A stretch of DNA of 63,872 nt, filler included, from Kipferlia bialata (taxonomy: Eukaryota), in the NCBI GenBank assembly GCA_003568945.1. It is 4 parts of 4 records of this genome, joined end to end, with 100 filler letters (N's around TTAATTAATTAA, not from the genome) between each part and the next. Parts side by side here need not be neighbours in the genome. Positions count along the whole stretch, not along the records: positions 1 to 20,605 come from BDIP01000368.1; positions 20,706 to 41,256 come from BDIP01000370.1; positions 41,357 to 61,808 come from BDIP01000372.1; positions 61,909 to 63,872 come from BDIP01000471.1. One strand, written 5' to 3'. The translations under genes and the position numbers were made by a program. The notes below the pieces were generated by a model. That model had not been told where the DNA came from. It did no database searches and saw only the letters and a list, made by a program, of their open reading frames with translations. How positions within the stretch are numbered: position 1 is the stretch's first letter; each line of letters begins with the position of its first letter. Shown here piece after piece: positions 3,201 to 63,819 of the stretch.

Positions 3201-5597
3201 GATTACGTGACCTGAGGGTGGATATCTTTATATGTATACATACTGTATGGATATATCCTGTAGATGGTACCTGATGATGCCGTCCCAAGTATCCACCCTG
3301 TGCCACTCTCAGTAACAGTCACAGTGGTATTCTCAGTATCCTTTGATACCAGCGTAGTATCAGTGGGTGGATCATCTACTGATATGGCAAGGGGGACTGG
3401 TAACAGCTGCCGGTGAGTCATAATATGATAATGCTGCATGTACAACAAATACACACTTCCGCATACGGTTGGTTGCCAGTCTAGTAAGACTATACATATC
3501 CTATAGAGAATACATATGTATAGTGTACATAATAGCCATATACCTGTCCCTCTGCTCCCGGTTGCCAGTCTGCTGGTATCACTAGTGGTACATCAAGCAC
3601 AGCGGAGCAGACACTAGAGACACACTCAACAGTGGCAGGGACAGATACACTGTCGGAACCTGAAACGTCAGGACATGCTAGATTACATAGCGATAGACCG
3701 AATTACAGAACCTAGTATCACCTGGAAGCATATGACGAGAGAGAGAGAGAGGGAAATACACACGTTGGCCTGATACGTATGTGTATATATACTATATATA
3801 TACCTATTGACAGACTAGCCGGGCTCCCCTCCGCATAAGTTCCCCCAAGCTCCACAGAAGAGATGGATTGCCCCTCCATATCCAGCATGGGGACACTGTT
3901 GGTCACAACGGCCAGCACATCCACAGTGTTGACACAATTGACACAATTGACACAATTGGCTCCCACTTCCAGTAACTCTGAGACGTAGTGCAGCCCCAAG
4001 TGAATCTGGATGTAGTCGCCTGGTACCAACCACTCAGAGTCCCTAGTATACACTACATCACTACTCTCTTGTGAGAGGGAGAGAGAGAGCGATGGGGAGT
4101 CTATCTCCGGCTGGTATGTGACCCCAATGGGAGTGGCGTTGGGTACATACACATCTAACAGTGCAGGGGATAGAGACACCTCCACCCCTCCGTTCCCATC
4201 TGAGGCTGATACACTCAGACCCTCGGGATAGCACCCACTCCAGTCAGAGCTGAAGACGGCAACGCGGGAGTCTGCAACCTGATATCAGTATAGTAACATA
4301 CATTAATCTGTATTGACACATTCATCATTCAATCATTACATACAGTGTGTATGTGTATCTGTAACCACCTGCATGAGAAGAGTCCCCTGATACAAGGCAA
4401 TGGAGTCAGCCTGCCTCTCTCCCTCCCTCTGCCCACTCACAGCTACGTCCCACACCAGCTCCCAGGCACCATTCTCTTGACCCATCTGGTATATGTACAC
4501 ACCGTCACCACCACCCACAATAAGTGTGTAGTAGAAGAGATATAGATAGTCTCCGTAGTGAGAGAGATCAGTCTCGGAGTAGGGTGACCCCTGGGATACA
4601 GTCTCCTTGTATGTCCACTCATATACAGGGTCGTCGTCGTCGTCTGTGTCCTCGACCTCCACCTCCTCTAGGTTGTATATGTGTATGGACTCGGTACCCT
4701 CCTCTCTGTACGTGACTGCGAGTACATCACTGTACACACCCACTGTACCACCCGGACAGGTGAAGGCCCAGTTCCAGTATCTGTGTTAATGACAATACAG
4801 CATATATCTAGTATATATATCGTATACATCACTCTGCCACCGGAACAGGTGAAAGCCCAGTTCCAGTACTGGTATATGAAGGTGTGATCCTCGAATATAA
4901 GTACATATATATATACATATATACCTTGCCGTGGCTGTCCTCCTCTCAAACACCGTGGTGCGCTCCTGGACCTAATGTCAGTGGATATCTGACTATATAC
5001 GCGTGTGTGTATATGTATGTATGTATATACTCTACTGTATACCTCTCCATCAATGGTGTACAGGTATGATACACCGATCCAGTACCCATCTGTATCTACG
5101 TGTCTGCCCCACTCAGACACAGTGCCAAGGGCCTCAGTGTCAAAGGCCTGGTATTAGCGGACATGAATATATGAATATACTTGTGTAGTATATATATATA
5201 CTATATACTGCCCCACTCAGACACTGTGCCAAGGGCCTCAGCCTCAGTCTCATAGGCCTGATATTAGCGGTATATATATATATAGTATAGTATATAGTAT
5301 AGTATATGGTATATATATAGTATATATATATACTATATACTGCCCCACTCAGAGACAGTGCCAAGGGCCTCAGCCTCTGTCTCAAAGGGCTGGCATTAAT
5401 GAACCATAGTATATACAGTGCAGATAGGACACTACACTATATATATACTATATAGTGCCCCACTCAGACACTGTGCCCACACTCTCCTCTATCTCAAAGG
5501 CCTGATGTAAGGGGATCACAATGTATATATATGATGGAACACTATAAGATGCAATATACATGTGCCAAGTGCCTCCTCCTCTGTCTCATAGGCCTGT
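236..5597 (-). CDS. Multi-exon membrane protein: N-terminal beta-rich (propeller/Ig-like) region, several transmembrane segments, acidic Ser/Thr-rich tail; 5' end uncertain or in the gap
   Basis: Chain of minus-strand ORFs (4668-5120, 4336-4743, 3718-4185, 3203-3454, 2841-3101, 2255-2728, 1945-2379, 797-1495, 236-787) bounded by GT..AG introns, e.g. exons 2746-2324, ~2247-2037, ~1853-1618. Hydrophobic stretches such as LPFVCVPCVLLVIVLAGL and IGVLLILAVLRFVV. Not every junction is resolved. Confidence 0.55.
5105..5597 (-). repeat. Five tandem copies of an acceptor plus exon-start segment (exon echo array)
   Basis: Motif tgccc(c)actcagacac(a/t)gtgccaagggcctcag..tc(t)ca(a/t)aggcctg at ~5105, 5209, 5341, 5456 and a partial copy at 5561, separated by (TA)n spacers. 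Confidence 0.85.
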
Positions 5598-5793
5598 GAT
5601 GAGTGGGAATAGCATGCAATACAACACACTTTACATGTATCGTGCACGTCTCACATCAGTGTATGTCTCCTCCTCTACCTAATACGCCTGATATGGGGAT
5701 TGATATATATATTTGCTTTTGCATATGTATATATATATACATGAGGGTGTGTGTGGGGGGGGGGGGGGGGGGGGTTTTTTTAAAAACTTTTAA

Positions 5794-6492
5794 NNNNNNN
5801 NNNNNNNNNNNNNNNNNNNNNNNNNNNNNNNNNNNNNNNNNNNNNNNNNNNNNNNNNNNNNNNNNNNNNNNNNNNNNNNNNNNNNNNNNNNNNNNNNNNN
5901 NNNNNNNNNNNNNNNNNNNNNNNNNNNNNNNNNNNNNNNNNNNNNNNNNNNNNNNNNNNNNNNNNNNNNNNNNNNNNNNNNNNNNNNNNNNNNNNNNNNN
6001 NNNNNNNNNNNNNNNNNNNNNNNNNNNNNNNNNNNNNNNNNNNNNNNNNNNNNNNNNNNNNNNNNNNNNNNNNNNNNNNNNNNNNNNNNNNNNNNNNNNN
6101 NNNNNNNNNNNNNNNNNNNNNNNNNNNNNNNNNNNNNNNNNNNNNNNNNNNNNNNNNNNNNNNNNNNNNNNNNNNNNNNNNNNNNNNNNNNNNNNNNNNN
6201 NNNNNNNNNNNNNNNNNNNNNNNNNNNNNNNNNNNNNNNNNNNNNNNNNNNNNNNNNNNNNNNNNNNNNNNNNNNNNNNNNNNNNNNNNNNNNNNNNNNN
6301 NNNNNNNNNNNNNNNNNNNNNNNNNNNNNNNNNNNNNNNNNNNNNNNNNNNNNNNNNNNNNNNNNNNNNNNNNNNNNNNNNNNNNNNNNNNNNNNNNNNN
6401 NNNNNNNNNNNNNNNNNNNNNNNNNNNNNNNNNNNNNNNNNNNNNNNNNNNNNNNNNNNNNNNNNNNNNNNNNNNNNNNNNNNNNNNNNNNN
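5794..6492. other. Intra-scaffold assembly gap (N run) flanked by poly-G/poly-C tracts
   Basis: Run of N, with a G tract at ~5755-5774 and a C tract at ~6517-6536. Confidence 0.95.
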
Positions 6493-6793
6493 CCCATTAT
6501 TTGGGGGGGGAATCGCTCCCCCCCCCCCCCCCCCCCACACACACACACTATGTCTCTCCCTCCATTTCTGACATGACCATCCACTTGACACTTATAGCTG
6601 TGCATGTAACTAGCGTTTGTAGTGTATCTGCTTCTCCCCTCTCTTTCCTTTCGACCCTCTACACCTTGAGTCATCACTGTCACAGCAGTTCATATCTACT
6701 CTTTGTGTCAATAGCCGCAACCTCATCCCTTCTCTTATCCTACAGGTCCCCTGGAGCTACAGCCTCCCCCTAGCCTCAGGCACTCCAGTTGCT

Positions 6794-9115
6794 ATGTCCA
6801 GAGATAACTGGGTGACATTCGCCCGTAAGGTGGACGTCGCATTCGCAGTCTATGGCCCAGGTATATATATGAATATATAATTACATTTATACCTGTATAA
6901 TTCATCCAGTTATTACATATATACATGTATGATATGGGTATTTTAGGTCAGGTTTATATGTATACATAAATATAATATTATATATAGTGCTATACTGCCC
7001 CCGACCCCCAGGTGACAAGGGCTCCGAGGACCCCCATGTGATCAGGGCCCATGTCCTGGGTGTGATGGCTGGAGAGGCCAAGGACGTGATAGCAGAGAAC
7101 CTCACAGACTCACCCTTCTACATGGCTGTGCTGGACCATGAACACAAGCAGGTAAGGGTTGTGTCATATATATATATATAGTTGTATATACATATATATA
7201 GTTGTCTCTACATGGCTGTGCTGGATCACAAGTACAAGCAGGTGGGCAACGTTACATATATAGTAGGATATATATAATATAGTTGAATCTACAAGGTCTA
7301 TGTCATTGTCATGTCTAGGAGACTCGGCCCCAGGTCGTTGTGTCTGTCAGGGGCACAGCTGTATCTATATATGTAATGATATATATATGTATGTATATAT
7401 ATATATATATGTATGCATGTAGCACCTATATATATATACATATATATCTCACACCCAGTCATATATATATAAATATGTATTGGGTATATTGGCGCACTAC
7501 CAATGCCAGGTCTTGGTGTCTGTCAGGGGCACCGCCAACACGGCCGACATGCTGCTCGACTCAAACGCCTTCCCCGCCCTCTTCCAGTGCCCCCCTCCCC
7601 CAGACCGTGTCCCTATCAGGGGCACTGAGGGGGGTGAGTGTTGCCACGAGGGGATGCTCTCTGCCGCATACCGCATCAACCACGAGCTGAAGGAGACTCT
7701 AGCTAATGCCACTAGGGAGTACGGGTACCCTGTGCATGTGACAGGCCACTCCCTGGGTGCTGGCACGGCCTCTCTCCTCGCCCTGCTGCTACAGAGACAG
7801 GGCATGAGTGGTGTTAGCATGACTGGGTTTGGGTGCCCTGCCTGCTGCTCTATGCCACTGTGCCAGGAGCTGGAAAGACTGGAGGGGGGGAGCAAGAACT
7901 ACGTGTACCGCAGTGACATTGTGCCCCGTCTCAGTGTACACTCACTCAAGGTTTGGGGTATAGTGTTCAGTACTCCTCTCTCTCTCTCTCTCATGCAGTA
8001 TGAGTGTCATCCATGTGTATGTATAAAAGTCACCACAGCGTATATATATATAAGAATACCCTTTGGAAACTGACCCTAGGTGTCTGGGGAGAGACTCAAG
8101 GCATGCGCCGATGAGATATGTCCATCCAGCAGGTATTAGTATATATATATGTAAATAATCGCATAGTGTATTGTATATATACATTACATATATACCCCAA
8201 ATACATATACCAATATATATATATATATACATCACTGACCTCCAGCAGCTACTTCGCCCAGGGTGCTGCCATGGTGGCTGCACTGGCATCCATAGGGACA
8301 GCAGACTTCAAGAGGAGGTGAGAATATACTTGTATATATTCATATATATATACTATGTATATATAGTGTCATACAACACTGGCATCCATAGGGACAGCGG
8401 ACTTCAATCAAGCGCAGGTGAATATATATATATGTAGTGTGTGTATGTCTATAGAGACCCTTTTCTCACCCCCAGGGTCACCACCAAGGCCATCTCTGAG
8501 CGCATTGCTGCCCCCTATGATCTCTTTGTCCCAGGCAGCCTTGAGCTGCTGCATGCTGAGGAGGGTGCCACAGACTATGACGTGACTGTGCGTGGCATCT
8601 CCCCCTTCGACCTAGCCGAGCCTGTCCTGGCCATGTGCATGACCCCTGACCACTCAGACTACGTCTCTGTGGCACACAGGATAAGGGAGGCTGTGGAGAC
8701 GGACAATGCGGTGGACGCTGACCCTGTGAGGGGGTTCGTGCATGGCCTGGCCAGGGGAGAGGAGGCTAGGGTGGCAGAGGGGGCAGACACCTGGAGGTGG
8801 TGTGCAGAGGGAGAGTACTCCTGGGACATTGGACATACACAGGAGGGGCCTGTGGTGCATAGGTACAGGGAGGAGTGGCAGAAGGCAGGGGCATGGACAG
8901 GGTACAACTACCGCACATTCACCCACACCGCTGCACCTGGCATGGTTATAGTGGGTGTGAAGGTGCAGTCTGTGATACAGGACGGGTGGGGTGGGGGCAG
9001 CTGGCGTGTCCCCTCTGCCCTAGTGATGCAGTCGAGGGGTGAGGTGGAGGTTGCCTCTGCCCTGTGCAAGGGTGCACACTGGGTGGTGGAGTGGTACGAG
9101 ACAGAGGCCCAGTGA
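6794..9115 (+). CDS. Class 3 lipase (alpha/beta hydrolase) with an extra C-terminal beta-rich domain; 6 exons
   Basis: Exons 6794-6860, 7012-7151, 7510-7950, 8080-8132, 8246-8317 and 8476-9115 splice in frame. Motifs: VSVRGT, HEGM, VHVTGHSLGAG (nucleophile elbow), FGCP, DIVPRL (catalytic Asp), PDH (candidate His). Confidence 0.85.
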
Positions 9116-10663: not shown

Positions 10664-13600
10664 ATGCACGAGATACTGATCTTCCTCCTGACTGCAATTG
10701 TGTGCTATGCCGTGTGGCGCTTCTTCCCCAGGTATGTGTTCTCCTTCGCCTCTCTCTCTCCCTCTCTGACCCCTTAGGCCTGACCGCCGCTTCATGGCCC
10801 TCGAGCTGCCCGAGAGCGACCCCCACCAGAGCGAGGTGGACCAGGCGAAGCTGGAGAGGTATGTGCTGTGCATATTATGTGCATTGGGTGTAGTGTGCAT
10901 GCATGGTGAGTGATGTCATATTCGTCCAAACCTGCCATACCCCTCCACTCCTGTACTCCCCCATTCCATCTGCTTCCATATCATTAATTAATGCATTTGG
11001 TGGTGTACCTCTCCCTAAGATATGTGGAATGAGTGGAATATAATGCCACATTGTTCATTCTCTCCGTTCGTTCTGTTCATTCGTCAGTGCCGCACCGCTC
11101 AGATGCATATAGAATAGATAGAATAGATAATATATGCATGTTCATCTATTTATCTATATATAAATAGGAGCACTCTCTCCCATTGATACAGTCTGTATTT
11201 TCAGTTTCTCAGAATAGATATGCTATTCTGAGGGCACTTCCGCTTGTCTAGGACCAGACTCTCACCCACACCCACACACACTCTCTCTCTCCTACTTTCT
11301 GTAATAGTAGACGTGTTCCCTCACCCCCAGGTGCCGCACCGAGGCCGAGTCCCTGACCCACCGCTCCAGGATGTGTGACTGGATAGACTACCACGCAAAG
11401 ACAAGGTGGGTGTGTATATATATATATATGTATACTACAGTGTATACCTCACCCTCTAGGCCCAATGAGATTGCCCTGATTGAGCATGACACCGACTCCA
11501 CCCTGACCTGGGCACAGCTGTCCACAGCCACAAAGGTAATATATGATATATATACATATATATATATAGTATATATTGATAGATAGAGAGATAGACACCG
11601 ACTCCACCCTGAGATGGGCACAGCTGTCCACTGCTACTAAGGTATGTACTGTATTATCGTGGATATATTCATGCATGTATATATATGCATACTGATACTA
11701 ACCCCAGGCCTTTGCCGCCCAGCTGATGGCCAATGGCATTGGCAAGGGAGACGTCGTGGCAACCACTCTGGTCCTGCTCAAGGTAGGCAGGGTGGATATG
11801 CACATATATATGTATGTGTATGTATATGAAGGATATGAGGAGGTCTGGTCCTTACTGGCTACCACTCTGGTCTTGGTGGATATGTAGAATATATGGTATA
11901 GGGCATTGCCACTCTACCTCTCTCTCCCCCTCACCCCAGGAGCACATCTACGTGATGTATGCCTGCTACAGGATCGGTGCCATCATCGCACCCCTCGACC
12001 CCAGGTACAGTCATGTTGTATACATAGCACTCTGTGGTATACATACCTTCACCCCTGGTAGTAGTGGTATATACCTAATATTATATATATATGTGTGTGA
12101 GTATGTATATGTGTGTGTGATATGTAACCCACCCCCAGGCTGAAGCTCAACGAGATCAGGGTACTGGTGTATACCTAATACTATATATATATGTGTATAT
12201 GAGTATATCCCTCACCCACCCAGGCTGAAGCTCAATGAGATCAGAGAGGCCTTTGACGCCATGAACCCCAAGGTACCTCACGGAGTGTACCTACATATCT
12301 CGACATCTCTCTCTCTATATATATATATGTATATACACACCCACCCCCAGGCCTACCTGTACCTTGGCCTCACCAGTGAATTCATCATATCTCTCTCTGT
12401 GTGTATTCATTCTCTCTGTCTCTATATCTATTTTCTTACTACCAGGCCTACCTGTACCTTGGTCTCACCAGTGAATGCATGATCTCTCTCTGTGTGTGTA
12501 CATTCATTCTGTCTATACTATCTATACGGCTTACTACCAGGCCTACCTGTACCTTGGTCTTACCAGTGCAGCAGACTTCAGGAAGGCAGCCAAGGGTATG
12601 TATAGTCATATATACATTGATATAGTGTATATATGTTCTTCTTACCCCAGTCATGATGGTTGAGCACACGTCTCTCTCTGTTGCTCTCTCCCTACATGCT
12701 TGTCGATTTATATAGTGTATATGTACATATATATGTATACCCCTTTGACCCCAGTCATGATGGTTGAGCACCCTGAGACCTCTCTGTTTGTGCAGTTCCA
12801 GGGAAAGGGGCCTGACGGTGAGTGTCATTATTATATGAGTGTACATATACTTGTGTATGAGTCATAGTATTCCATATATGTGTCCGTCTCTGCATTTCCA
12901 GGGCTAGGGGCCAGACGGTACGTATTGTCTGATATATATCTCTATATACCATAGGATATCTTTACTAAACATCTGACCGTTCATACTACCAATGCATACC
13001 CCATTGATCTCATGTAGTATATGAATATACTGTGCATAGCAATACTTCCCTAACCCCCAGGTGAGGACCCCGAGTCTCTCATCATCGAGGGGGCTGTGTC
13101 TGCCACAGGGTAAGTGCATACCCATATGTTTATGTCCTATGTATATATATATATATATATATCCATGACAGTGTCTGCTACAGGGTATGTTGTGTATAGC
13201 AGTATCGCACCTATGTGCCACACAACATCCCTATTGGCATCAAGGGCACTCACTCTACATGTCTTGTGTTAGTACCAAAACATATATATATACTTGTATA
13301 CCCCTCCCACCCCAGCTTTGCCCAGGGCATCAAGGGCACATACATCAGGTCACTAGTCTCTGGATCACTCGACAGGTGGGGACAGCGTGTATGTATCTAT
13401 ACTTATCTTCTCGGGCATATACATTTCTACTACAGTACCCCCCTCACCCCCAGGGCCATGCGCCGTGTGTCCCCCACCGACCCATGCCTCATCGTGTTCA
13501 CAACAGGTGGGTTAATGGATTATATATACTCTGTACATATATACAATATACATCAGAACACATGTATGCCGATACCTGCCTCAACGTGTTCACAACAGGT

Positions 13601-16600: not shown

Positions 16601-17291
16601 AATTTACATTGGATATATACATATGACATTGTCACAAAGAAAGTGCCCGAAGTATGTATGCATACATGGATATACACATACACCCCTATGTAGCAATGCT
16701 CCATTATATATGTGTAGATCCCCTCACCCCCCAGGTTGCCCAGGCCGTTGTGGTCGGGTCCAAGCACGCAGTGTATGGCGAGGGCATTGTGCTGTTTGTG
16801 GAGGCAGAGGGACACGCAGAGGCAGAGGCTGAGGGTGATGCCGACTACTGTGAGGGGGTGGTCAAGGCAGTGCATGCAGTGTGCAAGGTGTGTGGTGTAT
16901 ATAGTATATGTGTAGTGTATATATATATATATAGTATTATAGAGTATTTTTTTTACATTATATGTGAATTTTCCCTACCCCCCAGGAGATGGCTGCCTAC
17001 AAGAGAGATGTACATGGTAGATGGGTATATATATATATTATTGGTATATATATATACATATCATATATATATATATATATGCCTCTTATCTATCAGGAGA
17101 TGGCTGCCTACAAGCGGCCCCTCCACGTTGTCGTGCATGGCGGCCCTGGGTCCCTGCCCCTGAACAGGGTGTCCAAGATAGACAGGAAGGCACTCACGGC
17201 CCAGGTGAGTGGTGTATGTACACTATGATACTAATGCACACTGGGTTTTGTACAGTTTGTGCTACCTTTACTCACTCACTCTCTCTCTCAC

Positions 17292-49700: not shown

Positions 49701-51255
49701 CCAGGCACCGTTGTCAAGAGGGGCAGGGCCAGGAGGGCAGAGGTGGAGGAGAGTGAGGGAGAGAGAGAGAGTGAGGGAGAGAGAGAGAGTGAGGAGGAGT
49801 CCAACGCAGAGGTATTAGTAGTGTTAGTCCCCATACTTCTAGAGTCTATGCTCCGTATATGGTATAGTGTGCTGAGTTGGATGAGTCAGAGGGAGAGAGA
49901 GAGTGAGAGGGAGAGTCTGAGGAGGAGTCCAACACAGAGGTAGTGAACAACTCTATATACACACACAACTGGATATATGTGTATACGGTTTCATATATTC
50001 TATACTCTATATGTACTATTCAATAGTGTACACGTGTACTCACCAGATACAAGTATATCATATACATCATATATACAATATATATAGTAAAATATATATA
50101 TGCCCTCACCCCAGTCCAGCACCGAGATGGTCGAGGTCGAGGGAGAGGTAGAGAGCGAGGCAGAGAGTGATGGAGAGAGTGAGGGCGAGGGAGAGGGAGA
50201 GAGAGAGAGTGACACTGAGGAGGAGAGCACTGGCAGTGGGTCCGAGGGACGTATACTCACCATATACAAGTATATCATATGTATCATATATACAATATAT
50301 AGTAGTAAGTCCTTACACCCAGAGCACTGGCAGTGGGTCCGAGGGAGACAGTGACTCATCCTCTGAAGGTCCTACACCACCAGGTATATTAGAGTGTATG
50401 TGTTCATTCCTATACTGATATATATATCCATACTATTATTATATAGTATATATAGTATTATATATATATATGTTGTTGGGTGACAGTGACTCATCCTCTG
50501 AGGGACCTACACCCCCAGGTATATCTATATATATAGTCTGTATTTATGGTTACTTAGGATATCACATACACACATATATGTAAAGACTGTGACTCATCAT
50601 CTGAGGGACCAACACCGCCAGGTACCCACACACACACACACGTATATATATATTTGTATATATTATTCTCTGTATTAGTCTGATAGCCAGTCCCCTCCAG
50701 GTACACCCCCTCCAAGCAGAAGCAGAGACCTTGCATATAGTACAACATATACTACTATATACATGTCATTGTATATATTTACCTCCAGTGCCCTCCAGGT
50801 ACACCCCTTCCAAGCAGAAGCTGAGACAGAAGCAGAAGGAGAGGGAGAGAGAGAGAGAGAGAGAGACTGAGGGAGAGGAGGGCATGGCTGCTGACATGGA
50901 GCTGGGGTCATTCGACTTCTCAGGTAGCTATATATACGAATATCACTATGCCCATTATTGCTGCATTACCTCTCTATCTAGTAGCTACTGACATGTGTAT
51001 ATGTATACATATACCTATATGCTGACATGGAGCTGGGGTCATTCGACTTCTCAGGTATGCATTCCTTACCCCTCTCTCTCTCTATATATATATACTATCT
51101 TACACACCAGAGGGAGAGGCCCCATCCATCGTGTCTGAGCCAGAGTCTCTCTCTCTCTCTCTCTGTCTCTCTCGCTATATGTATATATGTCTAACCTTCA
51201 AGAAGGCGAGGCCCCCTCCATTGTGTCTGAGCCAGACTCTCTCTCTCTCTGTCTG

Positions 51256-51287
<32 letters not shown>

Positions 51288-53962
51288 GTATATATCTATA
51301 TATACTTACATACCAGAGGGCGAGGCCCCCTCCATTGTGTCTGAGCCTGAGACAGGTGGCAAGAGAGAGAGGGAGGACTCAGACTACATACTGGCAGAGG
51401 TATGGTGTATATAATAGTATATATACAAATATGTTATGATACGTGGAGATAGAGAGAGAGAGAGGACTCGGACTACATACTGGCAGAGGTAGGGTATAAT
51501 ATATATGTATATATATACATAGAGAGAGAGAGAGAGGGAGGACTCAGACTACATACTGGCAGAGGTGTATAAACTGCATATAGTCTTTCTCTGTCTGTCT
51601 CTCTACACCCATATTCATAGGGCCCCAACCCCTTTGTCAAGAAAAATAGACATCTCTCTCTCTGTGTCTCTCTCTATATGAGTGAACGTATATAATAGAG
51701 TTTATAATAGAGTGTATTACATAGTGGATATTCACCCCAGGTCCCCACCCCCCTTGTCAAGAGGAGGAGACGTGCCCTGTCCAATGCAGCTCAGGTGGCA
51801 GAGGTATAGAGGGGTATATATATATGTATGTATAGAGAGATCATAGAGAGAGAGAGAGAGAGAGAGACGTGCCCTGTCCAATGCAGCTCAGGTCGCAGAG
51901 TTAAGGTTTCTATTTACATAAAGTGTATGTTTATGTATAGATTATACCTTTGTCGTACTCTCCTATATATATATGTGTGTATTTTTGTATTTATGTCTCA
52001 CTCCAGAAGGGGCAGGATTATCTCTCTCAATATATATGATAGTATTGTATCTTTCTATACTATCTCTATTTTTTTTTCATATCTAACCCTCCAGGAGGAC
52101 CATGTGTATATACTCTCTCTCTCTATGTACTCTCACTGTATATAGTCTCTCTCTTATGTATATGTACCTCTGTCTCACCCTAGGAGGCCTCTGTCTCCAC
52201 CAGAAGGGGCAGGAGGACAAGGAAGGAGACACCCACACAGGTGTGTAGAGAGTACTGTGTGTATATATATATATTTGAGGGAGAGGGAGAGAGAGAAGAA
52301 GAAGGACAAGGAAGGAGACACCCACACAGGTATATAGAGAGATATACAAGTATATATATATAGAGAGAGAGGGGGGGACACAGGTATATAGAGAGAGACA
52401 CAAGTATATGTACACTTATAGAGAGAGAGGGGGGAGGGGAGGGACAATGAAGGAGACACCCACGCAGGTATATAGAGAGATGTGGTATATATACATATAT
52501 ATATATGTATATTCACTGTGTATGCTACCTTACCCCAGTCTGAAACTCTGCTTGATGTACTATCAGACCTACACGAGGTATCAGTGTATTATGGTTACAG
52601 TGGGGTATATTATATATACTCCAATACATTTACATACCTCCAGTTCTAGACAGTCAGATACTATCACTCTCCCCCGCTCTGTATAATTAGTGAGTATAAT
52701 GATTGTACATTGTACCTCTCTCACCTTCTAGGAGTCCTCCAGATCATATATTCATGTGTGTATATACCCTAAGTATATATATATGTGTGAATGTATATTA
52801 CTTACCCCCAGGAGTCCTCCAGCTCAGAGCAGTCTGAGTCTGAGACTAGTACTACTGTCTCTCCATATAGACACTATTCATCACATATTTATGTGGTTAT
52901 ACATATATATATATATATATATATAACTTTCTCACCTTCTAGGAGTCCTCCAGCTCAGAGCAGTCAGAGTCTGAGACAGAGAGTGAGGGAGAGAGAGAGA
53001 GAGAGGAGGAGAGAGAGAGTGGCAGTGAGAGTGAGAGTGAGGTGACTGTCAGCATGGGAGAGAGAGAGGAGGAGGAGGAGGAGGAGGGGACTGAGACCCC
53101 AAAGCCTACATCTAGGTATCTGAGTGCTACACCTATTAGTAGTAACAGTGTCCTGAAATTTAGGGTGCATATCTATATATATACTAATCCTTATCTAACC
53201 CAAGCCTACATCTTGGTATGTGCACTACCCTTACTACATTGATCCCTTTTGTCTCTCTCTTTGTGTTCCTATACATATATATGGGTGTGTGTATATGTTA
53301 CCTTCTAACCCCAGGTCCGAGAGGGCTGCCAGGAGGGAGAGTAACAGGGTGGCCAGTCTCAGGTATATACTCTCTCTCTATATATATATACAAAGTGCTT
53401 TATGTATATGCTCTCTCTCTATATATATGTACATAATACATAATACATAATACTATGTATATATACCATATTTGTATAATATGGAGAGTGTCAGGAGGGA
53501 GAGCAACAGGGTGGCCAGTCTGAGGTACAGTGGAGTGATATACTATTTACTATATATGAGTAATACTAACTCTCATATCTCTATGTATATGTATGTACTA
53601 CTATAGTTTTATATGGGAGAGCAACAGGGTGGCCAGTCTGAGGTATGGTACTATATGAATATATATACTCTCTCTATATATATGTACATAATACTATGTA
53701 TCTATACTATATTTGTATAGTATATAGATAGTAATGGAGAGTGTCAGGAGGGAGAGTGTCAGGGTGGCCAGTCTGAGGTATATACTCACTCAATATATAT
53801 ACAAAATACTTTATGTATATGCTCTCTCTCTATATATATATATACATAATACTTTATATATATACTGTACTTGTATAGTAATGGAGAGTGTCAGGAGGGA
53901 GAGCAACAGGGTGGCCAGTCTGAGGTATAGATGTTTACACACCATGTGCCGTACATACACAC

Positions 53963-53995
<33 letters not shown>

Positions 53996-54152
53996 CTCTA
54001 TGTCTTTTACTCTAAGTATATGTATATGATAAAGTGTCAGGGTGGCCAGTCTGAGGTACAATCATCAAACATACACACAATGCGTTTTGTTAACACTGTA
54101 TAATGGTGACATACTGCAGTGAGTACAAGTCACTCTCCAGGGTCAAGCCCCC

Positions 54153-54639: not shown

Positions 54640-54998
54640 CAGGTGCTGTATGAGTGGTTGCCCCCCCCCCCCCCTCTCTCTCTCTCTCTTTATACAGTAC
54701 TCATTCCAGACCATACCCACCTTATGTATATGTATGACATGTAAGAGTAGTTGTCCCACCCCCCTCTCTCTCCTGCAGTAGACTGAACTATTTCACTCCA
54801 GACCATACCCACCTTGTGCATCTGTACGAGTGGGGTCCCCTCTCTCTCTTCATATACATATTATATACATCTGTGTAAGTATTTTAGTTTGTCCTGATTC
54901 CAGACCATACCCACCTTGTGCATCTGTACGAGTGGGGTCCTCTCTCTCTTCATATATATATACCTCTATGTAAGTATATTATACAATACTCATTCCAG

Positions 54999-57900
54999 AC
55001 CATACCCACCTGGTATTTGTGTATGACATGGCTCAGGGACTACCACAGTTCGGAATCATTCCAGATGGTTATGAGGTATGTGATGTACTTTGAATACCCC
55101 TCCCCCCTCCCACATCATACCAAACTTCTGCATACTATACTGTATTAATTACTGCCCTCCAACACCTCCTCCCTCCCTCTATCCCCTCTAACACCACACA
55201 CATTTCCCCCCCCCTCATACTCAAACGTAGATCCATATACTCCCTCCCTCTCTCCCATGTGTGTGCTATTCTTAGTGTAATGTGTTTCTGGGTATACTCT
55301 CTCTTCCTCACTACGTAGCACAAGATTATACTGATAGCAGAAGGGGTACACATATTCACCCCATACGTATATACAGTACATGGTATAGATTACCGTATAC
55401 ACCCTCTCCTCTCTGTCACCCCCCAGCATACAGAAGTCCCAGACGGCACAGTGCCTCTCAGACTGACAGATACTACATAATACTTATCGTATACAAATAG
55501 TATCTATTTGATGTATGTGTATATATATACCCATTCTTACCCCTAGACCCAGTCCCAGATGGCCCAGGGCCTCGCAGACTGGGTGAGGAAAGTGGACCCA
55601 GAGAGGTACGGTATATAGATGAATGTATACATATACACATATATATGTGTGTGTATAGAGAGAGGGTACTGGGTGAGGAAGGTGGACCCAGAGAAGCAAG
55701 ACATATTCACATTATATACTATGCATGTATAATGTTATCTACCTTACTATAGAGTGTGTGCAATATACATGTATCTATCTGTCTATTTTTCAGGATCATA
55801 CTAGTCTAACAGCCAGATTCACAGAGCTAGTGGCTGCCCTGCTGGAGTCTGTGCCTGAACCACCTCCCAAGGTATATGTGTACTGTATATACATATGTAT
55901 AATACGCTATGAATACTATTCATAGTGGACACCACGAATACTATTCATTGAATAGTGTGGGTACGGTTCATACTAGATGCTGGAGTATGCGCCTGAACCA
56001 CCACCCAAGGTATATATACTGCATATATACATCTATATAAGGATAATACACTATGAATAGTGGGTGGGTGTGTTATATACTAAATGCTTGAGTCTGTGCC
56101 TGAGCCACCCAGGGTATGCATATATATATATACATATCAATACCCACACACATATATATATATATGTATATGTGTATATCTATTTATAGTGCACGGAACA
56201 TTGAGAGTCATAGTTATACTATATATATATATATATATACTATATTAATACATACTATCTATATATTCTGACTCTCTAGGCACCTGAGCCTCCTCTAGCC
56301 TTTCCAGTCTATCCCTACTACCACCTTGGAGGGTCTTCTCTGGGTACACCCATTTCACGTCTCTACACGTTACCCAACGTCGCTGTACCCGGTACACCGC
56401 ACACCGTTCCCAGTACCACCCAGAGACCCAGCACTGGACCGAGACTCTATAGCCGCAGGGGATTCGACAGGCCTCTAGAGCCACCAGAGGTAGAAGGGGG
56501 CATGGGAGGAGAGAGGGAGAGACCTAAGCAGTGGGAGGGCGAGAGACATGGGGAGGGCAAGAGGCCTATGGCAGTGGGGGAGGGAGGGAGAGAGGAGAAT
56601 GTGAGTCTTCAGACTATTGGTACTGTAGGTACTCGCACTAGGATAGAAGAGGGAGGAGAAGGGGGAGAGAAGGATCCCTGGCCTAAGGTGTATCCTCTGT
56701 ATACATATGAGGTATACACCCCAACTGTAGGGGTAGGAGAGGTAGATAGACGGGAAGTAGGACAGGGAGAGAGGGACACAGAGAGCTTTGGCTATGCTGC
56801 CTATACAGCACATACCCAGAGTGTGAGTGGTGCTAGTACTCGTACTCATACTCCCTCACTCTATGGGGAGTGGAGATGGGCAGAGGGAGGGGAAGAGAGA
56901 GGGGGGGAGAGAGAGGGAGAGGATACAGCCCAGGCCCAGAGTGTGGGTGGTAGTTATACTGATACCTATCTCCCTATGGCGGGGAGATGGTCACAGAGAG
57001 ATGAAAAGGGAGAGGGAGAGGAGTTCTCTGGTGCAGGGTCTGAGACCACAGAGGAACTGGAGAGTGAGATACTAGGAGATGGAGACCGGGAAGGCGAGGA
57101 AGAGACTCTAGTAGAGACTCCCTTAGAGAGTGTGTCTGCGTCTTCTGTCCATGAGTGCACCTTTGCAGATCATGAAACTGGTGCTGATACTGCTACGTCC
57201 TCTGTGCATGAGCGGGTAGCAGAGGCTGTGTGGGTGACAACTGACCCTGACTCTAGCATAGGCTCTAGGGTCACAACCCCTAGTGGTGAGGGTGTCCCAC
57301 TCAGAGTAGCAGAGACAGAGGGAGAGAGAGAGGGAGAGGTGGAGCCAGCTAGTGATAGTGAAGGCTCTGAGCTTGATGGCATAGATGGAGAGGGAGACAG
57401 AGAGCCGGATGCAAAGGGAGAGGGAGAGGGAGAGAGTGGTGGGGACAGGTGGTACTGGGACTGTGATGGTTCCGATGACATGTCAAGAGAGAGAGCAGAT
57501 GGAGAGAGAGAGAAAGGTGACAAGTCAACAGAGGGGGAGAGAGAGCAGGACACAGAGAGAGAGTACAGTGATGGGTTCAGTGAGTCCTCCGACTTGGGTG
57601 ACCAGACCTCAACACAGAGAGAAGCAGAGGAAGGTGGAGAGAGGGAGAGAGAGAGGGAGAGAGAGGGGGGGAGAGAGAGTGATGTGTTCAATGAAAACCC
57701 AGTGGATATGGACTTGGACACAGACTCAGACGCCTCGGAGCCAGCAACGTACACCGTCAACCGTACACCGTTCGGCGCTTCAGAGCCAGACGCCTCGGAT
57801 CCAGAAGCACCTAGCCCAGCATCAGCTGGCACCAATCACCGTACGGATTACACCTCCCTGAGGTGCTGTCAGGAGGTATGATGTACTCGTAGGCCTTCCA

Positions 57901-58095
57901 CCGTGCCACCCTTCAGATAGCCAACTGGTAACTCAGTATATGATTGTTATAGACATATTCATATACTTAGATCCATTGAGTCCACGAATATCTTATCCCA
58001 GGCCTTCCACCGTGCCACCCTACAGATAGCCAGCCTCAATGCCAGGCTGGAGGACGCTCAGGTATAGTGTATGTATATATATACCCATCTAATGA

Positions 58096-58126
<31 letters not shown>

Positions 58127-58332
58127 ATAGAGACAAGCAGTAGAGACAAGCTGCCAGGTTGGAGGACACACAGGTATAGTACAACGATCAGAACACCTCG
58201 AGCTCTTTCAATCTAATGCATACCCTAGTTTCTGTCATTCTTGTCTCTCTGAAGTGATCCTTCTAACCCCAGCGCCATCTCTCTGAGGAGCAGAGGGGCC
58301 GGGAGGGAGAGCAGGTATGACAAAGATTCATG

Positions 58333-58365
<33 letters not shown>

Positions 58366-58418
58366 TGGCAGAGAGGGAGAGGAGGTACGACAAAGATTCA
58401 TATATATATACTTGTACA

Positions 58419-58451
<33 letters not shown>

Positions 58452-61400
58452 AAAGTGCTGGGGTGGTAGCAGGGGGCAGCATGTAGCGTGTATCTTCTGA
58501 ATCTCTAACTGCAGAAGAGGACTGCCCAACTCATCCCGACCCATGAGAAACCAATATATATCGATATATATACAGAGAGAGAGACAGTGAGTATCTATAC
58601 CCTCTATATATATCCTCACAACAGGAGAGGGCAGCTGAACTGATCCAGACCCTGAGGGAGGAGAGAGACACAGCACAGAGTCAGGCAATGGCACTGGCAT
58701 CACAGTTGGCAGCAGCTAAGGTGATATATAGAAATCTAGACCCACTTCAGACCAATCTTCTATACCTCGTATACAAGTTTTAGCCTCCGCTATCCATTCT
58801 TCGAGGTGTCAATGCACATATTCTTTTGCTTTCAAATTGAGAGAAAGAGATAAATAGTATTGAGACTCACTACTTACCCCAGCGCCGTATCTCCACTGTG
58901 CAGCGGGGTGTGATGAGCAAGTACTGCAGGTATGCACTTGGTATATAACCCAAACTCCCATAGAATACCTATGTGATATATGCATGTGTATATGTATACA
59001 TGTATATCTCCACTGTGCAGAGGGGTGTGATGAGCAAGTACTGCAGGTATGCACATGTGATATACTCGTATAGACTACTTATATGGTGTATGTACAAAAT
59101 GTGTACATGACACTGCAGGATAACTATCACTCAAGGAGAAGACTACCCTATTGTTATCATATGTTTATATTATATGTATAATGATATATATATACATATA
59201 TATATATATATACCATAAACCATATGCACTGACATCAGGATGACTATCGAGTCCCTCAAGGAGAAGGCCACCCTATACAGCAAGGAGAGGGACAGCGAGA
59301 GACAGGAGAAGGAAACGATGAGGTGAATATATACTACAATGTATAGTGTGAGTATATAGTATCTTATCACTTGTTCCAATGAATACCGTTTGACTAACGT
59401 TCTAGGCAGTCACTGAACTCAGTTCTGACAGAGAACACGTCACTACATGCCAGGATACAGGTGGGTTACTGCCTAGATCTATACCTCTACCAGTATTCAT
59501 TCACCTATCCATAGGAACTGGAGGCCCAAACCGTTTTCCACATACACATATTATTTCCTTTATGGTTGCCATATAGATCTAGTACGTGGTAGGATTAGTC
59601 TGTCGGTGACAGTGTGTTAACGGGTACACTATTGCACATATATATACTCTTACGTATAGGAACTTGAGGCCCAACTGAGCGCCAAGAGCACTCCTGCCGA
59701 GACACCATCTGTCACTCTACATGCTCCAGATTCTGAGAGTGCAGAGACAGCTGGTCATACCGGTGATGTAGTAGAGAAGGGAGAGATAGACGGAGAGGGA
59801 GAGAGGGATTATGAGATGGATGGGGACAAGACCGACAGTCTGGGCGAGACTGAGCTGCTGAGACAGGTGGGTGCATAGGAGTAATTGTAATATTGCATGG
59901 CTATTCCATATACATATTGATATTAGGGGATATATCAAGGACACTTACCAATACAGGTTGCCGTGCTCATTGGGGAGAGAGAGCTGGAGAGGGAGGCCAG
60001 GGAGAAGGCTGAGCGTAACAGAGACGACAAGACCCGGCAGTACGAGAGACTCAGAGAGAGACTAGAGGTGGAGTGCGCCAAACTATCAGGCTTGGCTGAG
60101 ACTGAGCGAGAGGCACGTGTTAAAGCAGAGAGACAAGTGCAATCACTCACGCGTCAGCTAGAGAGGGAGAGAGAGAGCAGCGGGGCCAACGAGGCCAGGC
60201 GCCAGAGGGAGAGAGAGCGAGTGGCGCAGGAGAATGCAAGAGAGAGGGAGAGAGTGGCCAATGAGATGAGGCAGAAGAAGAAGCAGAGAGAGAAGGAGAG
60301 GAAGGAGCAAGAGAAGAGAGAGAGAGAGAAGAGAGATGTCGCTGATGAGGAGGAGAGGCAGAGACGGAAGAGGGAGAACGCCAATGCTAGGGCCAGGGCC
60401 ACCAAGTATAGTTCGTGTCAAGAGGACTACTATAAGGTAAGATACACATATATATACATATTGATAGGTATGTGAATTATTGTGTATTTGCCAAGTATCA
60501 TTCATTGGCCACCAAGTCTAGTTCGTGTCAAGAGTACTACTATAAGGTATGTGTATACCATATACCATATACCATAGTTTACCATCAGAGTCCTGGCGTC
60601 CCTCTGCCACTGTCCCTGAGAATTGAATCGTATAGTGTACTACATTAGTATAGTATCAAGCACAATTGCCATTATAGCAATTATATAGCACTGCCTAATC
60701 CTTTCACATTTGGTGTCACTACCTGAGGTAGTCTATCTCTGCCACTGAATACTATCTTCAATACGAATATCTATGTGTATGTATTCATGTATGGTTACAC
60801 TAATATATTGACTCTAATAGTATATGAATCCCCCTCTGCCACTGTCCCTCAGATCAAGACGGCGTACTGTACCAATACTATATGTATCGTATTCCAACCC
60901 CAGAGCCTTGGCGTTACCCCCTCTGCCACTGTGTCTGAGATCAAGAAGGCATACCGCAAGTTGGCCCTGGAGTGGCACCCTGGTGAGTATGTACTCATAT
61001 TACATATATGATATATATATTATATATATATATAGTATATATATAATGTATATAATGTATATATATATAATATAGTAGACTATAGAGCACTATATATATA
61101 TATCACTATATACCATGGTATCATGGTAGATCAGGAAGCTGGCACTAGAGTGGCACCCTGGTGAGTACATACTACATACTGTTACACTACATAGTAATAC
61201 CTTCTACATGTACTGTATGTGCTATATACAATTCGTATGCACGTACTATCGTAGGATGGCCCTGGAGTGGCACTCTGGTGAGTATAAGTGTAGACCATTG
61301 ATTATAGACTATAGACTATATAATAGTAATGTATATATCTTTGTCCTCGCGTCATCCTCTGCACCATCTCTCACTGGTCAGACAGCTATCTAGTGTTAGA

Positions 61401-61808
61401 TGTTCTATAACCTGATTGTAAAAGAAATTGTATCTTGTTCTCTCGCTCACTTTTCAGACCGCAATCTGGACAGATCAGAGGAGGCCACAGAGGTCTTCAA
61501 GCGTCTCAAGGTATCAATTATTACAGTGGTCTCTTGCACCTTTGTATTGTGACCATTATAGGAGGTATTTTTGTATCTTTTGAGGTATATGAGGTCTTCA
61601 AGCGTCTCAAGGTACATACAGTACCCAGCAACTTGTGATCTCTTGCAAACAACGATATATGTATACTTGTTTGTGTGTACACTAACTCAAGGCCGCTTAT
61701 GACACCCTGAGTGATGCAGATGAGAGGACATGTACATATACATATATATATATAAATAGAGATAAGTCTAAACTAACCCTAAGGCTGCTTATGAGACCCT
61801 GAGTGATG
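54999..61808 (+). CDS. Large acidic/coiled-coil protein with a C-terminal J domain (class C DnaJ-like); partial at both ends
   Basis: Exons include 56280-57875, 58002-58061, 59957-60435 (..QEDYYK), 60904-60982 (SLGVTPSATVSEIKKAYRKLALEWHP), 61458-61510 (DRNLDRSEEATEVFKRLK) and AAY(D/E)TLSD. The HPD motif is rebuilt across a phase-1 intron. Confidence 0.8.
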
Positions 61809-61908: not shown

Positions 61909-61950
<42 letters not shown>

Positions 61951-62472
61951 CGTTGTTACTGGAACGCAATATGTATTTGGCCCTTACATACATTAGCACA
62001 TATGTATGGCAAGGGGTTATGTACATATACTTGGGACACAAATAGAGTGGGGCGTTGAATGCTCCTGGACACGGGAGATAGAGAACGCCCTCCCATATTA
62101 AGACTGCACTAATATGCTATACACTCGCATATCCACTGTACAATGTAAGATTCAACGGAGATATGTGCACAACTACTAGAAACCCAGTCTCTTGATAGAA
62201 CTGGGAGTACATACGCACTGTGCCAGTACCTGAGCGTGGAGAGAGCCAGCGTGTCCTTCCGTGTTGCAAACATCGACCCCACTCCATCTGAGCTGTTGTG
62301 GGACATCCTCAACGATGGCAGACGACCTATGGAGAGAGAGAGAGAGGATGCTGAGCTTTACTGACAGCAAAATCACTGAACACATTTTTGGCAAAATTTT
62401 CTACACCCTTTGGTCTGTGCCGGAGAGCTACCACCAGCGGCTTTCACCCATTCACCGCCCGTAAAGCGAGGA

Positions 62473-63571
62473 ATGAGCGAGGAGACTGACAGATATCTGG
62501 AGGATACCCTCGGGTACCTCACCAAGAAGGATGCGAGTGGCGAGTCGCTGTACAGCCACCTGTCTGACATGATTGTGCGTCTTCTGGAGATCCAGGAGGG
62601 CCAGGTGTGTATTACAGCCCTATATTGCAGCTAATATTTGTATATAGAGTGGTATATGGAAGGAGTGGGAGCATGGGAGTGCACCCTGGGTGAGATGTGT
62701 GTGTTCAGTCTATCCACCTATTCCCTCTCTCTAGACAGTGCTGTATCCTTAGTATGTATATTATCCATCCACATTACATTCAATATTGGTTACATGAATA
62801 CTATATGTGGTGGGGTTGTTATTATTGGGTGCTGTAGTATACTCTATGTGCGAACTTTCCTCTGTCCAATATGTACCTGAACTCGTGTCTCTCTCTTTGT
62901 AATTCCCACGCCCTCTACCGCCTCAATATGTATACAGAGTCTCGATCTCTCTGTATGTTGGCCGCATAATGTTGTTTGTAGTGCAGTGTGGGTCTTATCC
63001 TTTGACAGTTTACAATTGTCTTGACTATAGTGTGGGTCTGGTATGTGTCTATACCGAGATATTCGATTAGTAGCTCACCCCTAAGAGTCTAGTGTGTGTC
63101 ATAGCAGTCTGTACTGTGCTTTCTATTGTTGCTCACCTCTAGGACCCAGACAGCAAATATATATATACTAATACGGACATTTAGTGTAGGTAGGGTATGT
63201 ATATATAGAGAGAGAGTATGAATGGTATATATATATATATATCTATCCACTGCTCACCCCTAGGACCCAGACAGCAATGCAGCCCCACCATCCTTTGAGG
63301 CAGTGTCCAGGGATATCAAGGTGGGTATACATATATGGCTATATAGAGAGAGATGTAGTGTATAGTGTATACATATAGAGACATACCTTTGAGGCAGTGT
63401 CCAGGGACATCAAGGTGTGTATAGAGAGCGAATATAGTATATATATATATCCACTCCTCTACCCCTCAAGAGTCCCACTGTGACCATTGTATATATAACC
63501 CTCAGGAGTCCCACTGTGACCAGCCTGTGCAGGATGAGCTGAAGAGCCAGTTCGACATATCACCGGAGCAG
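62473..63571 (+). CDS. RSP4/6: Flagellar radial spoke head protein 4/6 family, N-terminal exons (continues beyond the window)
   Basis: Exons 62473-62604, 63264-63320 and 63506-63571 give MSEETDRYLEDTLGYLTKKDASGESLYSHLSDMIVRLLEIQEGQ|DPDSNAAPPSFEAVSRDIK. This matches the family N-terminal pattern YL..xxSGxxLYxHLSxMxxxLL...FExxSxDxK as I recall it. Confidence 0.7.
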
Positions 63572-63819
63572 GTACATAACTATTCAATTGTATACATATT
63601 CATGTATAATACTATATATATTACAAATATACTACATGCTGTAATTACTGTTGTAATTGTAATCCTTGGTCAGTACATTAGGGGTCAGATCGACATATCA
63701 CCGGAGCAGGTACCGCAATATACTTAATACTGTATATTCATGTTTCATCTTATATACATTTTACTTTTGTCAGTACATATCGCTGGCGCAGAGGAATGTA
63801 CACATTTATGTATGTTGAT

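Follow-up and report, generated by a model that had tools for sequence, protein, structure and literature searches.

We analyzed a window of 63,872 nt, i.e., the whole stretch of DNA studied here, from the free-living protist Kipferlia bialata, in which four scaffolds of the fragmented, short-read assembly GCA_003568945.1 are joined and along which all coordinates are counted. Its introns often hold echoes, by which we mean short copies of the neighboring exon edge, and these were located by scanning every exon against its two flanking introns.

Genes and echo arrays in the window

Six modelled gene pieces bear echoes, two of which may be one gene interrupted by a gap. The first, a minus-strand gene with 12 modelled exons (245..5257), has acceptor echoes at 4868-4830 and 3150-3115; a further acceptor array was noted upstream of 5147, as well as a tandem array at 5104-5452. 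The remaining pieces lie on the plus strand. A class 3 lipase gene with six exons (6794..9115), whose model equals database protein P0001 and matches PF01764, carries three echoes in two of its five introns. The gene at 10664..17416 encodes in 26 exons a 627-aa AMP-binding (acyl-CoA synthetase-like) enzyme with an open frame and RNA contig coordinates that agree with the model, and 16 of its 25 introns together hold 21 echoes; PF00501 matches a single exon weakly (E 0.033, under the curated cut-off), and the family name is otherwise our assumption from sequence motifs. The large gene, whose exon model and arrays are based on open-frame continuity, comprises a first part of 25 modelled exons (41895..53362; open frame of 607 aa), where 52 echoes are spread over 21 of the 24 introns, and a second part of 15 modelled exons (54999..61808; open frame) that ends in a DnaJ domain (PF00226, E 1.3e-9) and whose 17 echoes occupy 10 of its 14 introns. 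On scaffold 4, a gene start of three exons (62473..63709) shows echoes at 63143, 63386-63414 and 63470 and one ending at 63709. The control gene (37055..40470, plus strand) has six exons, five short introns (52-81 nt) and no echo, and none was found in the five modelled introns of scaffold 2. A seventh piece, near 20.3 kb and outside the modelled set, shows a period-83 repeat.

Several arrays illustrate the pattern. In the AMP-binding gene, two acceptor echoes (12351-12378 and 12446-12473) precede the exon start at 12541; both are present in DNA contigs (depth 471 and 492), and the RNA joint 12272>12541 skips both. A 47-nt donor echo (14608..14654) of exon 14456-14535 differs from it at six positions, five of them synonymous, and the RNA joint 14535>14742 takes the first donor. 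Two acceptor echoes, starting at 15098 and 15196 (15098..15218), lie before the exon start at 15286 (RNA joint 15004>15286). The scan places two donor echoes (16242..16366) behind the exon end at 16163, the evidence at this site including RNA contig piece coordinates; the second echo, ending at 16366, has its intron start in common with the functional copy, which the first, ending at 16269, has not. In the large gene, five donor echoes (43274..43710) follow the exon end at 43215; this array arose partly by later duplication of a two-unit block, seen as a repeat of period 189 (two copies, 94%). The scan located seven acceptor echoes (45845..46621) before the exon start at 46726, with a distinct acceptor tail in front of each and with differences chiefly at third codon positions, four donor echoes (48018..48406) after the exon end at 47930, two (51451..51564) after that at 51399, and two (55978..56113) after that at 55871. 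Three acceptor echoes with unalignable spacers (49382..49630) stand before the exon start at 49705. Five donor echoes (53489..54055) behind the exon end at 53362 and three acceptor echoes (54710..54931) before the exon start at 54999 fall outside the echo count given below. Repeats over the whole unit, with 84-94% matches, were found at 12347-12568, 15091-15309, 43339-43719 and 48735-48984.

The initial annotation had described such echoes. All five acceptor and three donor sets checked were present, and echoes proved denser than it claimed. Its positions were exact for 12351/12446/12541, 49382/49483/49596/49705, 16163/16269/16366 and 51399/51488/51564 and off by one at four other sites (15195 is 15196, 54709 is 54710, 54801 is 54802 and 56112 is 56113). 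It had spoken of at least seven genes on three scaffolds and both strands; scaffolds 1, 3 and 4 and both strands are borne out, and the gene count here is six modelled pieces, with the unmodelled seventh showing the period-83 repeat.

Echo geometry and splicing

Our systematic scan of the modelled introns returned 103 local matches in 172 adjacent exon-intron pairs, against three in 1,116 non-adjacent control pairs, or 0.47 once scaled for length, which is the chance expectation. After removal of five rows (three duplicates from overlapping head and tail queries and two from the ambiguous 50115/50323 exon), a total of 98 echoes remained in 53 of 86 modelled introns, with a median length of 31 nt (range 14-67 nt). 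Every upstream match aligned to the 5' part of the exon and every downstream match to the 3' part (0/98 reversed). The initial annotation had read this polarity as a rule of its own, but it follows from geometry, because the last acceptor copy alone runs on into the remainder of the exon, and the first donor copy is the only one with that remainder in front of it. Most echo-bearing introns (38/53) hold one kind of echo, and donor echoes come first in all 15 that hold both, one of which contains two donor and seven acceptor echoes. Arrays reach up to eight versions of one exon edge; each of the 98 echoes covers a single edge, and a whole exon with both splice sites was never duplicated. Echoes longer than 42 nt made up 8 of 71 in exons of at least 60 nt, compared with 54% expected under a uniform breakpoint model, although selection could also produce this excess of short echoes. 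Intron length was described by 125 + 113 x echoes (r = 0.86), i.e., about 113 nt per echo, and roughly 11,000 of 21,819 intron bases are attributable to them; the earlier claims of a major source of intron length and of the unit size are therefore supported. Only 8 of the 86 introns contained non-exonic repeats, most of which flanked echo units, and Rfam gave no match within the window.

The splice site is intact in most echoes, with AG in 37 of 40 acceptor and GT in 44 of 47 donor echoes, and the decoy equalled or outscored the real site in 21/40 acceptors and 26/47 donors, in agreement with the initial description of near-perfect decoys. Their use could be checked in one gene, the AMP-binding gene, where a 1,926-nt contig skipped all 18 echoes compared and agreed exactly with the functional exons and no others; it represents one isoform, but contigs lose rare ones, and its run (X2) was taken as RNA by assumption, the record bearing no RNA label and the contig being spliced at GT..AG joints. 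The use of decoys in RNA junctions, raised by the initial annotation, was thus not seen in this gene. Recursive splicing, raised there as well, is unlikely because AG|GT occurs in just 2 of 40 acceptor echoes. Donor-like sites behind acceptor echoes were not depleted relative to shuffles (5 vs. 6.2), nor were donor-like or acceptor-like sites in the spacers.

DNA contigs of run X1, which is from the same sample as X2 and may itself be the source of the assembly, contained every echo unit of this gene at single-copy depth (431-503 vs. about 470), and contigs of 600-1,100 nt ran across exons and echoes together, copy into copy, without mismatch.

Divergence and origin of the echoes

Differences between echo and exon are strongly silent. 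Among unique changes, 98 of 161 (61%) were synonymous, while neutral decay predicts 26%, or no more than 41% if drift also affects the functional copy (p 6e-7), a ceiling that becomes 47% when trinucleotide context is considered (p 2e-4). Counted per copy, 90 of 415 fourfold sites (22%) differed, compared with 19 of 804 second positions, and gaps appeared in 2 of 98 echoes. The RNA-checked gene alone gave 20 synonymous changes out of 30, a sign test over exon edges gave 31 vs. 15 (p 0.013), and 30 of 43 sites variable between echoes of the same array (19 arrays) were third positions; the bias was weak in one gene piece (18/128 vs. 22/257). No measurable conservative bias of amino-acid changes was detected (p 0.21), and 22 of the 98 echoes showed no difference within the trimmed core. 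Divergence did not grow with rank along the arrays (rho 0.07), and first and second positions were no more decayed in echoes distant from the exon (12/500 vs. 52/1113), so that no age order is seen. Judged from these sequences, the mostly silent differences suggest that the echoes probably derive from other versions of the gene that were themselves functional.

On its intron side, a unit was detectably homologous to the adjacent copy in 21 of 95 cases, and the other 74 flanks were no nearer than unrelated introns, whereas a duplicate simulated at the echoes' own divergence was detected in 99-100% of cases. In simulation, about 40% substitution plus indels was needed before 78% of flanks were hidden, against 22% at fourfold sites; hence intron turnover must outpace that of silent sites, unless many spacers are of non-allelic origin. 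The 21 echoes with homologous flanks were equally diverged at silent sites (pS 0.22). Identity falls once the junction is passed; over the first ~10 intron bases it remains modestly above that of unrelated introns. Introners or other mobile intron-making elements would form a dispersed family of similar intron sequences; within the window, spacers matched other introns at background level only. Donor-side spacers carried (GA)4+ in 15 of 50 and (CT)4+ in none, and acceptor-side spacers carried (CT)4+ in 17 of 48 and (GA)4+ in two; these tracts are strand-symmetric and lie near the junctions, whose breakpoints are approximate. A spliced mRNA can be discarded as template, since acceptor echoes follow acceptor-type intron ends instead of the upstream exon, and mutual gene conversion in cis is rejected by argument, as it cannot lower pN/pS below ~0.5.

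We propose, with belief and doubt in about equal measure, that the echoes are pieces of diverged working alleles, stacked into the intron by DNA break repair and then end-joined. A break in the intron would lead to strand invasion of a diverged allele, in which the short exons would be the sole good homology; synthesis would pass through the template intron and stop ~30 nt inside the following exon. The attempt to anneal with the other end would then fail, and the new end would be joined to the resident intron half by polymerase-theta-type end joining, in many cases where the growing strand has a (CT)n tract. Repair of the left end would leave an acceptor echo and repair of the right end a donor echo, which within this proposal accounts for the polarity as well as for donors preceding acceptors. 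The product may be near neutral, because a decoy acceptor has no donor following it and a decoy donor no acceptor preceding it, and exon definition would ignore decoys lacking a partner site. Species with about 20% silent diversity exist. The diverged templates are something we can only infer, because no second allele, strain or relative was found by searching longer proteins with a lipase exon, shorter proteins with the lipase, and metagenome contigs with both the lipase and an exon of scaffold 2, and no variant letters were seen in the DNA contigs, which drop variants and of which only matches of at least 95% were compared. Failed synthesis-dependent strand annealing (SDSA) with theta-mediated joining yields tandem duplications from ~100 bp (PMC8654963); in fornicates, NHEJ and Rad51A are missing and Dmc1 is retained (PMC8516963), a recombinase that is mismatch-tolerant (PMC8682777). 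PolQ is listed for K. bialata, and XPF and ERCC1 are present (PMC8516963 supplement); the latter two could cleanly trim flaps, which argues against the proposal. Flanks more diverged than silent sites predict, the lack of an age order, the weak third-position bias in one gene piece, the lack of a conservative bias in amino-acid changes and the undepleted donor-like sites behind acceptor echoes weigh against it as well, and the comparison with RNA and DNA covers one gene. HELQ was not mentioned in the PMC8516963 files searched.

Other origins must be weighed against this one. The resident exon edge might be copied in cis next to a foreign spacer (filler from simple-sequence synthesis or a captured intron end), with the functional exon later swapped by short gene conversions. 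The number of flanks resembling unrelated introns, beyond what silent divergence predicts, and the 22 echoes with identical cores speak for this scenario, yet every spacer would have to bring a working acceptor or donor end immediately, the excess identity near junctions and the array-specific donor types suggest common ancestry, and the echoes with homologous flanks are no less diverged at silent sites; it requires a highly diverse population as well, and we regard it as unlikely, though the strongest of the alternatives. Another possibility is that, as the initial annotation read it, the resident junction was simply duplicated in tandem time after time; the copies would then have decayed neutrally, and microsatellite-rich intron DNA would mutate far more quickly than exon-like DNA. 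This accounts for geometry, polarity, the narrow unit size and the units that are ordinary repeats over their whole length. It is nevertheless improbable: the synonymous fraction exceeds its ceiling of 41-47%, third-position bias between echoes is unexplained, intron sides are recognizable far less often than simulated, breakpoints would be expected throughout the exon, and non-exonic intron repeats are few and mostly echo-unit flanks.

Coding-type constraint and intact, strong splice sites would also be seen if echoes were now or formerly spliced, as rare alternative sites, former mutually exclusive exons or nested and recursive removal, and so under selection at the protein level, and contigs are unable to reveal rare isoforms. 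The RNA contig has functional exons only, however, echoes possess no second splice site and rarely AG|GT, paired nested removal is ruled out in the 38 introns with a single echo kind, and decayed whole-exon duplicates predict both polarities, so this explanation has a similarly small chance. That a short-read assembler concatenated two or more haplotypes is highly implausible; the assembly is fragmented and synonymous differences resemble allelic ones, but separately assembled X1 contigs cross the copies without mismatch at single-copy depth and join exons to echoes, and arrays reach eight versions.

Related systems and implications for K. bialata

No description of such exon-edge echo arrays was found in the literature searched, and known systems resemble them in part. 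Recursive splicing and stwintrons involve extra splice sites within an intron, with an AG|GT ratchet site in recursive splicing; echoes likewise add intronic splice sites, but 38 of 40 acceptor echoes lack AG|GT and the donor and acceptor numbers are unbalanced. Dinoflagellate genes carry relic spliced leaders stacked at gene starts, derived from recycled mRNA. Both are tandem stacks of truncated, formerly functional elements beside a working one, but echoes keep the intron-side splice signals, so that their template was not spliced mRNA. In the potato RdRp gene, intron end plus exon start are repeated head to tail, as in an acceptor echo, and this was one event in which the donor in the upstream copy creates a new intron (PMC4974935); K. 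bialata instead has 98 copies in 53 of the 86 modelled introns, which are skipped in the checked RNA, diverge in a coding-type manner and have intron parts that for the most part cannot be aligned. Duplications by failed SDSA and polymerase theta in C. elegans helq-1 and brc-1 mutants share with echoes the direct repeat of the copied stretch, a non-homologous junction and a smallest size of ~100 bp, and aborted SDSA in Drosophila offers the same class of likeness (PMC8654963; PMC8951532). The C. elegans events occur in mutants on a sister template, with identical copies, a median of ~1 kb and positions anywhere in the genome (PMC8654963), whereas K. bialata is apparently wild type and shows ~113-nt units at exon edges with allele-like divergence. 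The failed-SDSA pathway therefore fits K. bialata only with a diverged homologue, not a sister, as template.

For gene annotation, predictors may mistake echoes for exons, as the initial exon parse did repeatedly here. More broadly, we tentatively suggest, as a possible but doubtful extension, that K. bialata introns are routinely built and renewed in this manner across the genome: homologous repair between hyper-diverged alleles would swap and stack whole intron ends, each intron would be an archive of as many as eight earlier alleles, this process would account for about half of the intron DNA, and the reduced spliceosome would have to rely on strict exon definition, with a minimum exon size near 40 nt, to select the outermost sites among equally strong decoys. 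The K. bialata spliceosome has 87 of 174 surveyed proteins (PMC6679479), and the echoes offer a natural genome-scale test of how a reduced spliceosome ignores decoys as strong as real sites. If true, break repair from diverged alleles would be an unreported route of intron growth and turnover, and would provide, from one genome, indirect evidence that this lineage, of which one culture has been sequenced, has sex or exchanges alleles and is very diverse. With 124,912 introns, K. bialata is the sole intron-rich fornicate with a published count (PMC5874029), and the proposal, if true, would bear on whether its introns reflect the ancestral state.

Gene models and census of exon echoes

The window joins four pieces (1-20605, 20706-41256, 41357-61808 and 61909-63872), and its linkers (20606-20705, 41257-41356 and 61809-61908), each a 12-base stop-codon spacer between two runs of 44 N, are artificial and non-biological. 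Hand curation of a rough parse, in which echoes frequently passed for exons, gave seven gene pieces with 93 exons and 86 introns, all 86 of them GT-AG, with frames open throughout. In the lipase gene (6794..9115, plus strand), one exon matched a Kipferlia bialata database protein at 99%, and the translation of the six-exon model is that protein.

Echoes are short intronic copies of a neighbouring exon edge, mostly with an intact splice site; acceptor echoes lie upstream of the exon and donor echoes downstream. All echo coordinates cited in the initial annotation were present in the sequence, within one base. A first BLAST pass (score at least 16) found 82 same-strand matches in 172 adjacent exon-intron pairs versus 16 in 7,826 non-adjacent pairs, and zero on the opposite strand of the introns in those 172 adjacent pairs. 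After masking of dinucleotide runs, iterated local alignment returned 103 matches against 0.47 expected. Removal of five rows (three duplicates and two of the ambiguous 50115/50323 exon) left 98 echoes (48 upstream, 50 downstream) spread over 53 of the 86 introns; arrays adjoining terminal exons were observed too and are left out of this count. Median intron length was 103 nt without echoes, and each echo added about 113 nt (r 0.86). The biggest array (45845-46621) holds seven acceptor echoes. At 43339-43719 a block of two echoes has itself been recently duplicated (period 189, 94%), so arrays can grow by ordinary unequal exchange too.

Several individual features were also recorded. An exon-like stretch of 136 nt at 50115 has a tail that copies the start of the 50323 exon, preceded by 111 extra bases (37 codons); 50115-50383 is either a long echo, derived from an allele carrying an in-frame indel, or includes a small additional exon at 50115-50147. 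At 44944-44982, just 9 nt past the donor, lies an echo of the first 30 nt of the following exon, with no acceptor. By eye, the lipase donor echo at 8377-8417 apparently reads CGC against exonic AGG (both arginine, differing at two bases) and apparently carries a 4-nt duplication. An open frame exceeding 16 kb (20706-37295), rich in GC, almost without introns and with one assembly gap, encodes cysteine-rich repeats with weak ephrin-receptor-like matches (PF07699, E 4.5e-6 and 1.7e-4) and runs on into exons of coiled-coil-like character; none of its five short introns contains an echo. The first exon of the fourth scaffold (62473-62604) weakly matches a radial-spoke-head family (PF04712, E 0.13). 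A further intron-rich gene on the minus strand (17537-20431), whose model is uncertain and which lies outside the counts, has a period-83 acceptor-type repeat at 20259-20433.

Nucleic acid support and splice-site choice

In the single gene checked, the 26-exon putative AMP-binding gene (10664..17416, plus strand), the DNA contains the echoes and the RNA skips them. Across 12130-16880, DNA contigs of run X1 ran from copy to copy without mismatch, at a depth of 431-503 in echo units versus about 470-500 in unique stretches; X1 is possibly the assembly's own source, in which case this is a separate assembly of the same reads and not a second sample. Run X2, taken as RNA, yielded a single contig of 1,926 nt whose 12 listed GT..AG joints all agreed with the gene model. 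Its piece coordinates fit the entire model at a constant offset, so all 18 echoes of the stretch were skipped and the functional copies, the exon edges actually used, were used letter for letter. Because rare forms are lost in contigs, echoes may still be used at a low level.

The polarity rule proposed initially holds as a pattern without exception: reversed echoes numbered 0 of 98, and donor echoes preceded acceptor echoes in 15 of 15 mixed introns, the test being circular in genes other than the RNA-checked one, whose functional copies were chosen by frame continuity. It is not a separate law and follows from geometry, because just one copy of a head-to-tail repeat ending inside an exon is continuous with the remaining exon. 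The same geometry means that no echo offers an acceptor and then its own donor. Among the decoys, that is, the splice sites of echoes, 37 of 40 acceptors retained AG and 44 of 47 donors retained GT, and decoy scores were not below those of real sites; site strength therefore cannot account for splice-site choice, and putative exon definition is the simplest inference. Recursive use, also raised initially, lacks its signature, AG/GT occurring in only 2 of 40 acceptor echoes. Exons starting with GT were, if anything, echoed less often (4/34 vs 17/52, p 0.04). The echoes of two such exons, 42609 and 51621, start with GC and GG, with loss of the AG/GT site, which may hint at selection against AG/GT decoys.

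Divergence of echoes, flanks and junctions

Judged from the sequence, echo divergence resembles that of working alleles, a point absent from the initial annotation. With 6 nt cut from each echo's far end, 161 unique changes were scored: 98 synonymous, 61 amino-acid-changing and two stop-making. Random relocation of each change to a same-base site gave a synonymous share of 26%; the ceiling rose to 41% with the functional copy also drifting at silent sites (p 6e-7) and to 47% with trinucleotide context (p 2e-4). Per copy, 90 of 415 4-fold sites differed versus 19 of 804 second positions, and two of the 98 echoes had a gap. The RNA-checked gene alone had 20 synonymous changes out of 30, and between echoes of the same array third positions held 30 of 43 variable sites; the third-position bias was less marked in the large gene's second part (54999..61808, plus strand). 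Such coding-type divergence implies that most of an echo's separate history would have passed under protein selection, junk status being recent.

The initial interpretation was recurrent tandem duplication in units of about 90-200 bp. Ordinary tandem repeats of recent origin make up a minority of the units. Among 95 testable echoes (three flanks were too short), only 21 had a flank, the intron side of the unit, that resembled the flank of the adjacent copy more closely than 95% of unrelated introns did. Identity drops at the junction and stays modestly above background over some 10 bases; for several echoes with 100% identity to the exon, the flanks could not be aligned. Simulated duplicate flanks were detected almost always at 5-7% divergence and in 87-94% of cases at 22%; matching the observed flanks required about 40% substitution plus indels. 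Plain tandem duplication with even decay is thereby rejected, and a simple allele model is strained too, unless intron turnover outpaces silent sites.

At the junctions, donor-side spacers contained (GA)4+ in 15 of 50 and (CT)4+ in 0 of 50, and acceptor-side spacers (CT)4+ in 17 of 48 and (GA)4+ in 2 of 48. The acceptor tracts could alternatively serve as polypyrimidine tracts; on the strand ending inside the exon, both kinds run on into (CT)n, and this symmetry suggests a DNA-level join and not a splicing signal. Echo length has a ceiling near 40 nt irrespective of exon length (above 42 nt in 8 of 71), and at 33, 39 and 42 nt the smallest internal exons in the models lie near it. The ceiling could reflect repair-synthesis overshoot or selection against exon-sized decoys.

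Proposed mechanism and novelty

The copies and their polarity are demonstrated, as are the skipping in one gene, the coding-type divergence, the divergence of the flanks and the tract asymmetry. The best mechanism, to which we give about an even chance, is break repair from diverged alleles with overshoot and end joining: breaks would arise inside introns, diverged alleles would act as templates, synthesis would overshoot before end joining, and exon definition would pass over the resulting decoys. In worms, polymerase theta is described as joining failed SDSA intermediates, which yields tandem duplications of about 100 bp upwards, a precedent for the proposed pathway (PMC8654963), and aborted SDSA is known in flies (PMC8951532). 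Fornicates are reported to lack NHEJ and Rad51A and to retain two Dmc1 paralogues, and the supplement of the same paper lists PolQ, XPF, ERCC1 and five Rad52 entries for Kipferlia bialata (PMC8516963); Dmc1 is described as mismatch-tolerant (PMC8682777). Protein searches and two metagenome scans found no diverged allele or close relative, the main gap in the mechanism.

Kipferlia bialata is a free-living fornicate. Its genome paper reports 124,912 introns, regarded as likely ancestral, and the examined portions of the main text make no mention of exon-edge repeats (PMC5874029). A spliceosome survey gives it 87 of 174 proteins and zero snRNA candidates (PMC6679479). Within the open-access literature searched, a coverage that leaves out subscription papers, no description of the echo pattern was found; the nearest known case is one junction-crossing duplication in potato, which created a new intron (PMC4974935). 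Overall, the initial observation was confirmed and its interpretation supported in part. We class the echo pattern as a variety of junction-spanning duplication, and echoes may, as a tentative and rather doubtful possibility, represent a new way in which introns are routinely built.
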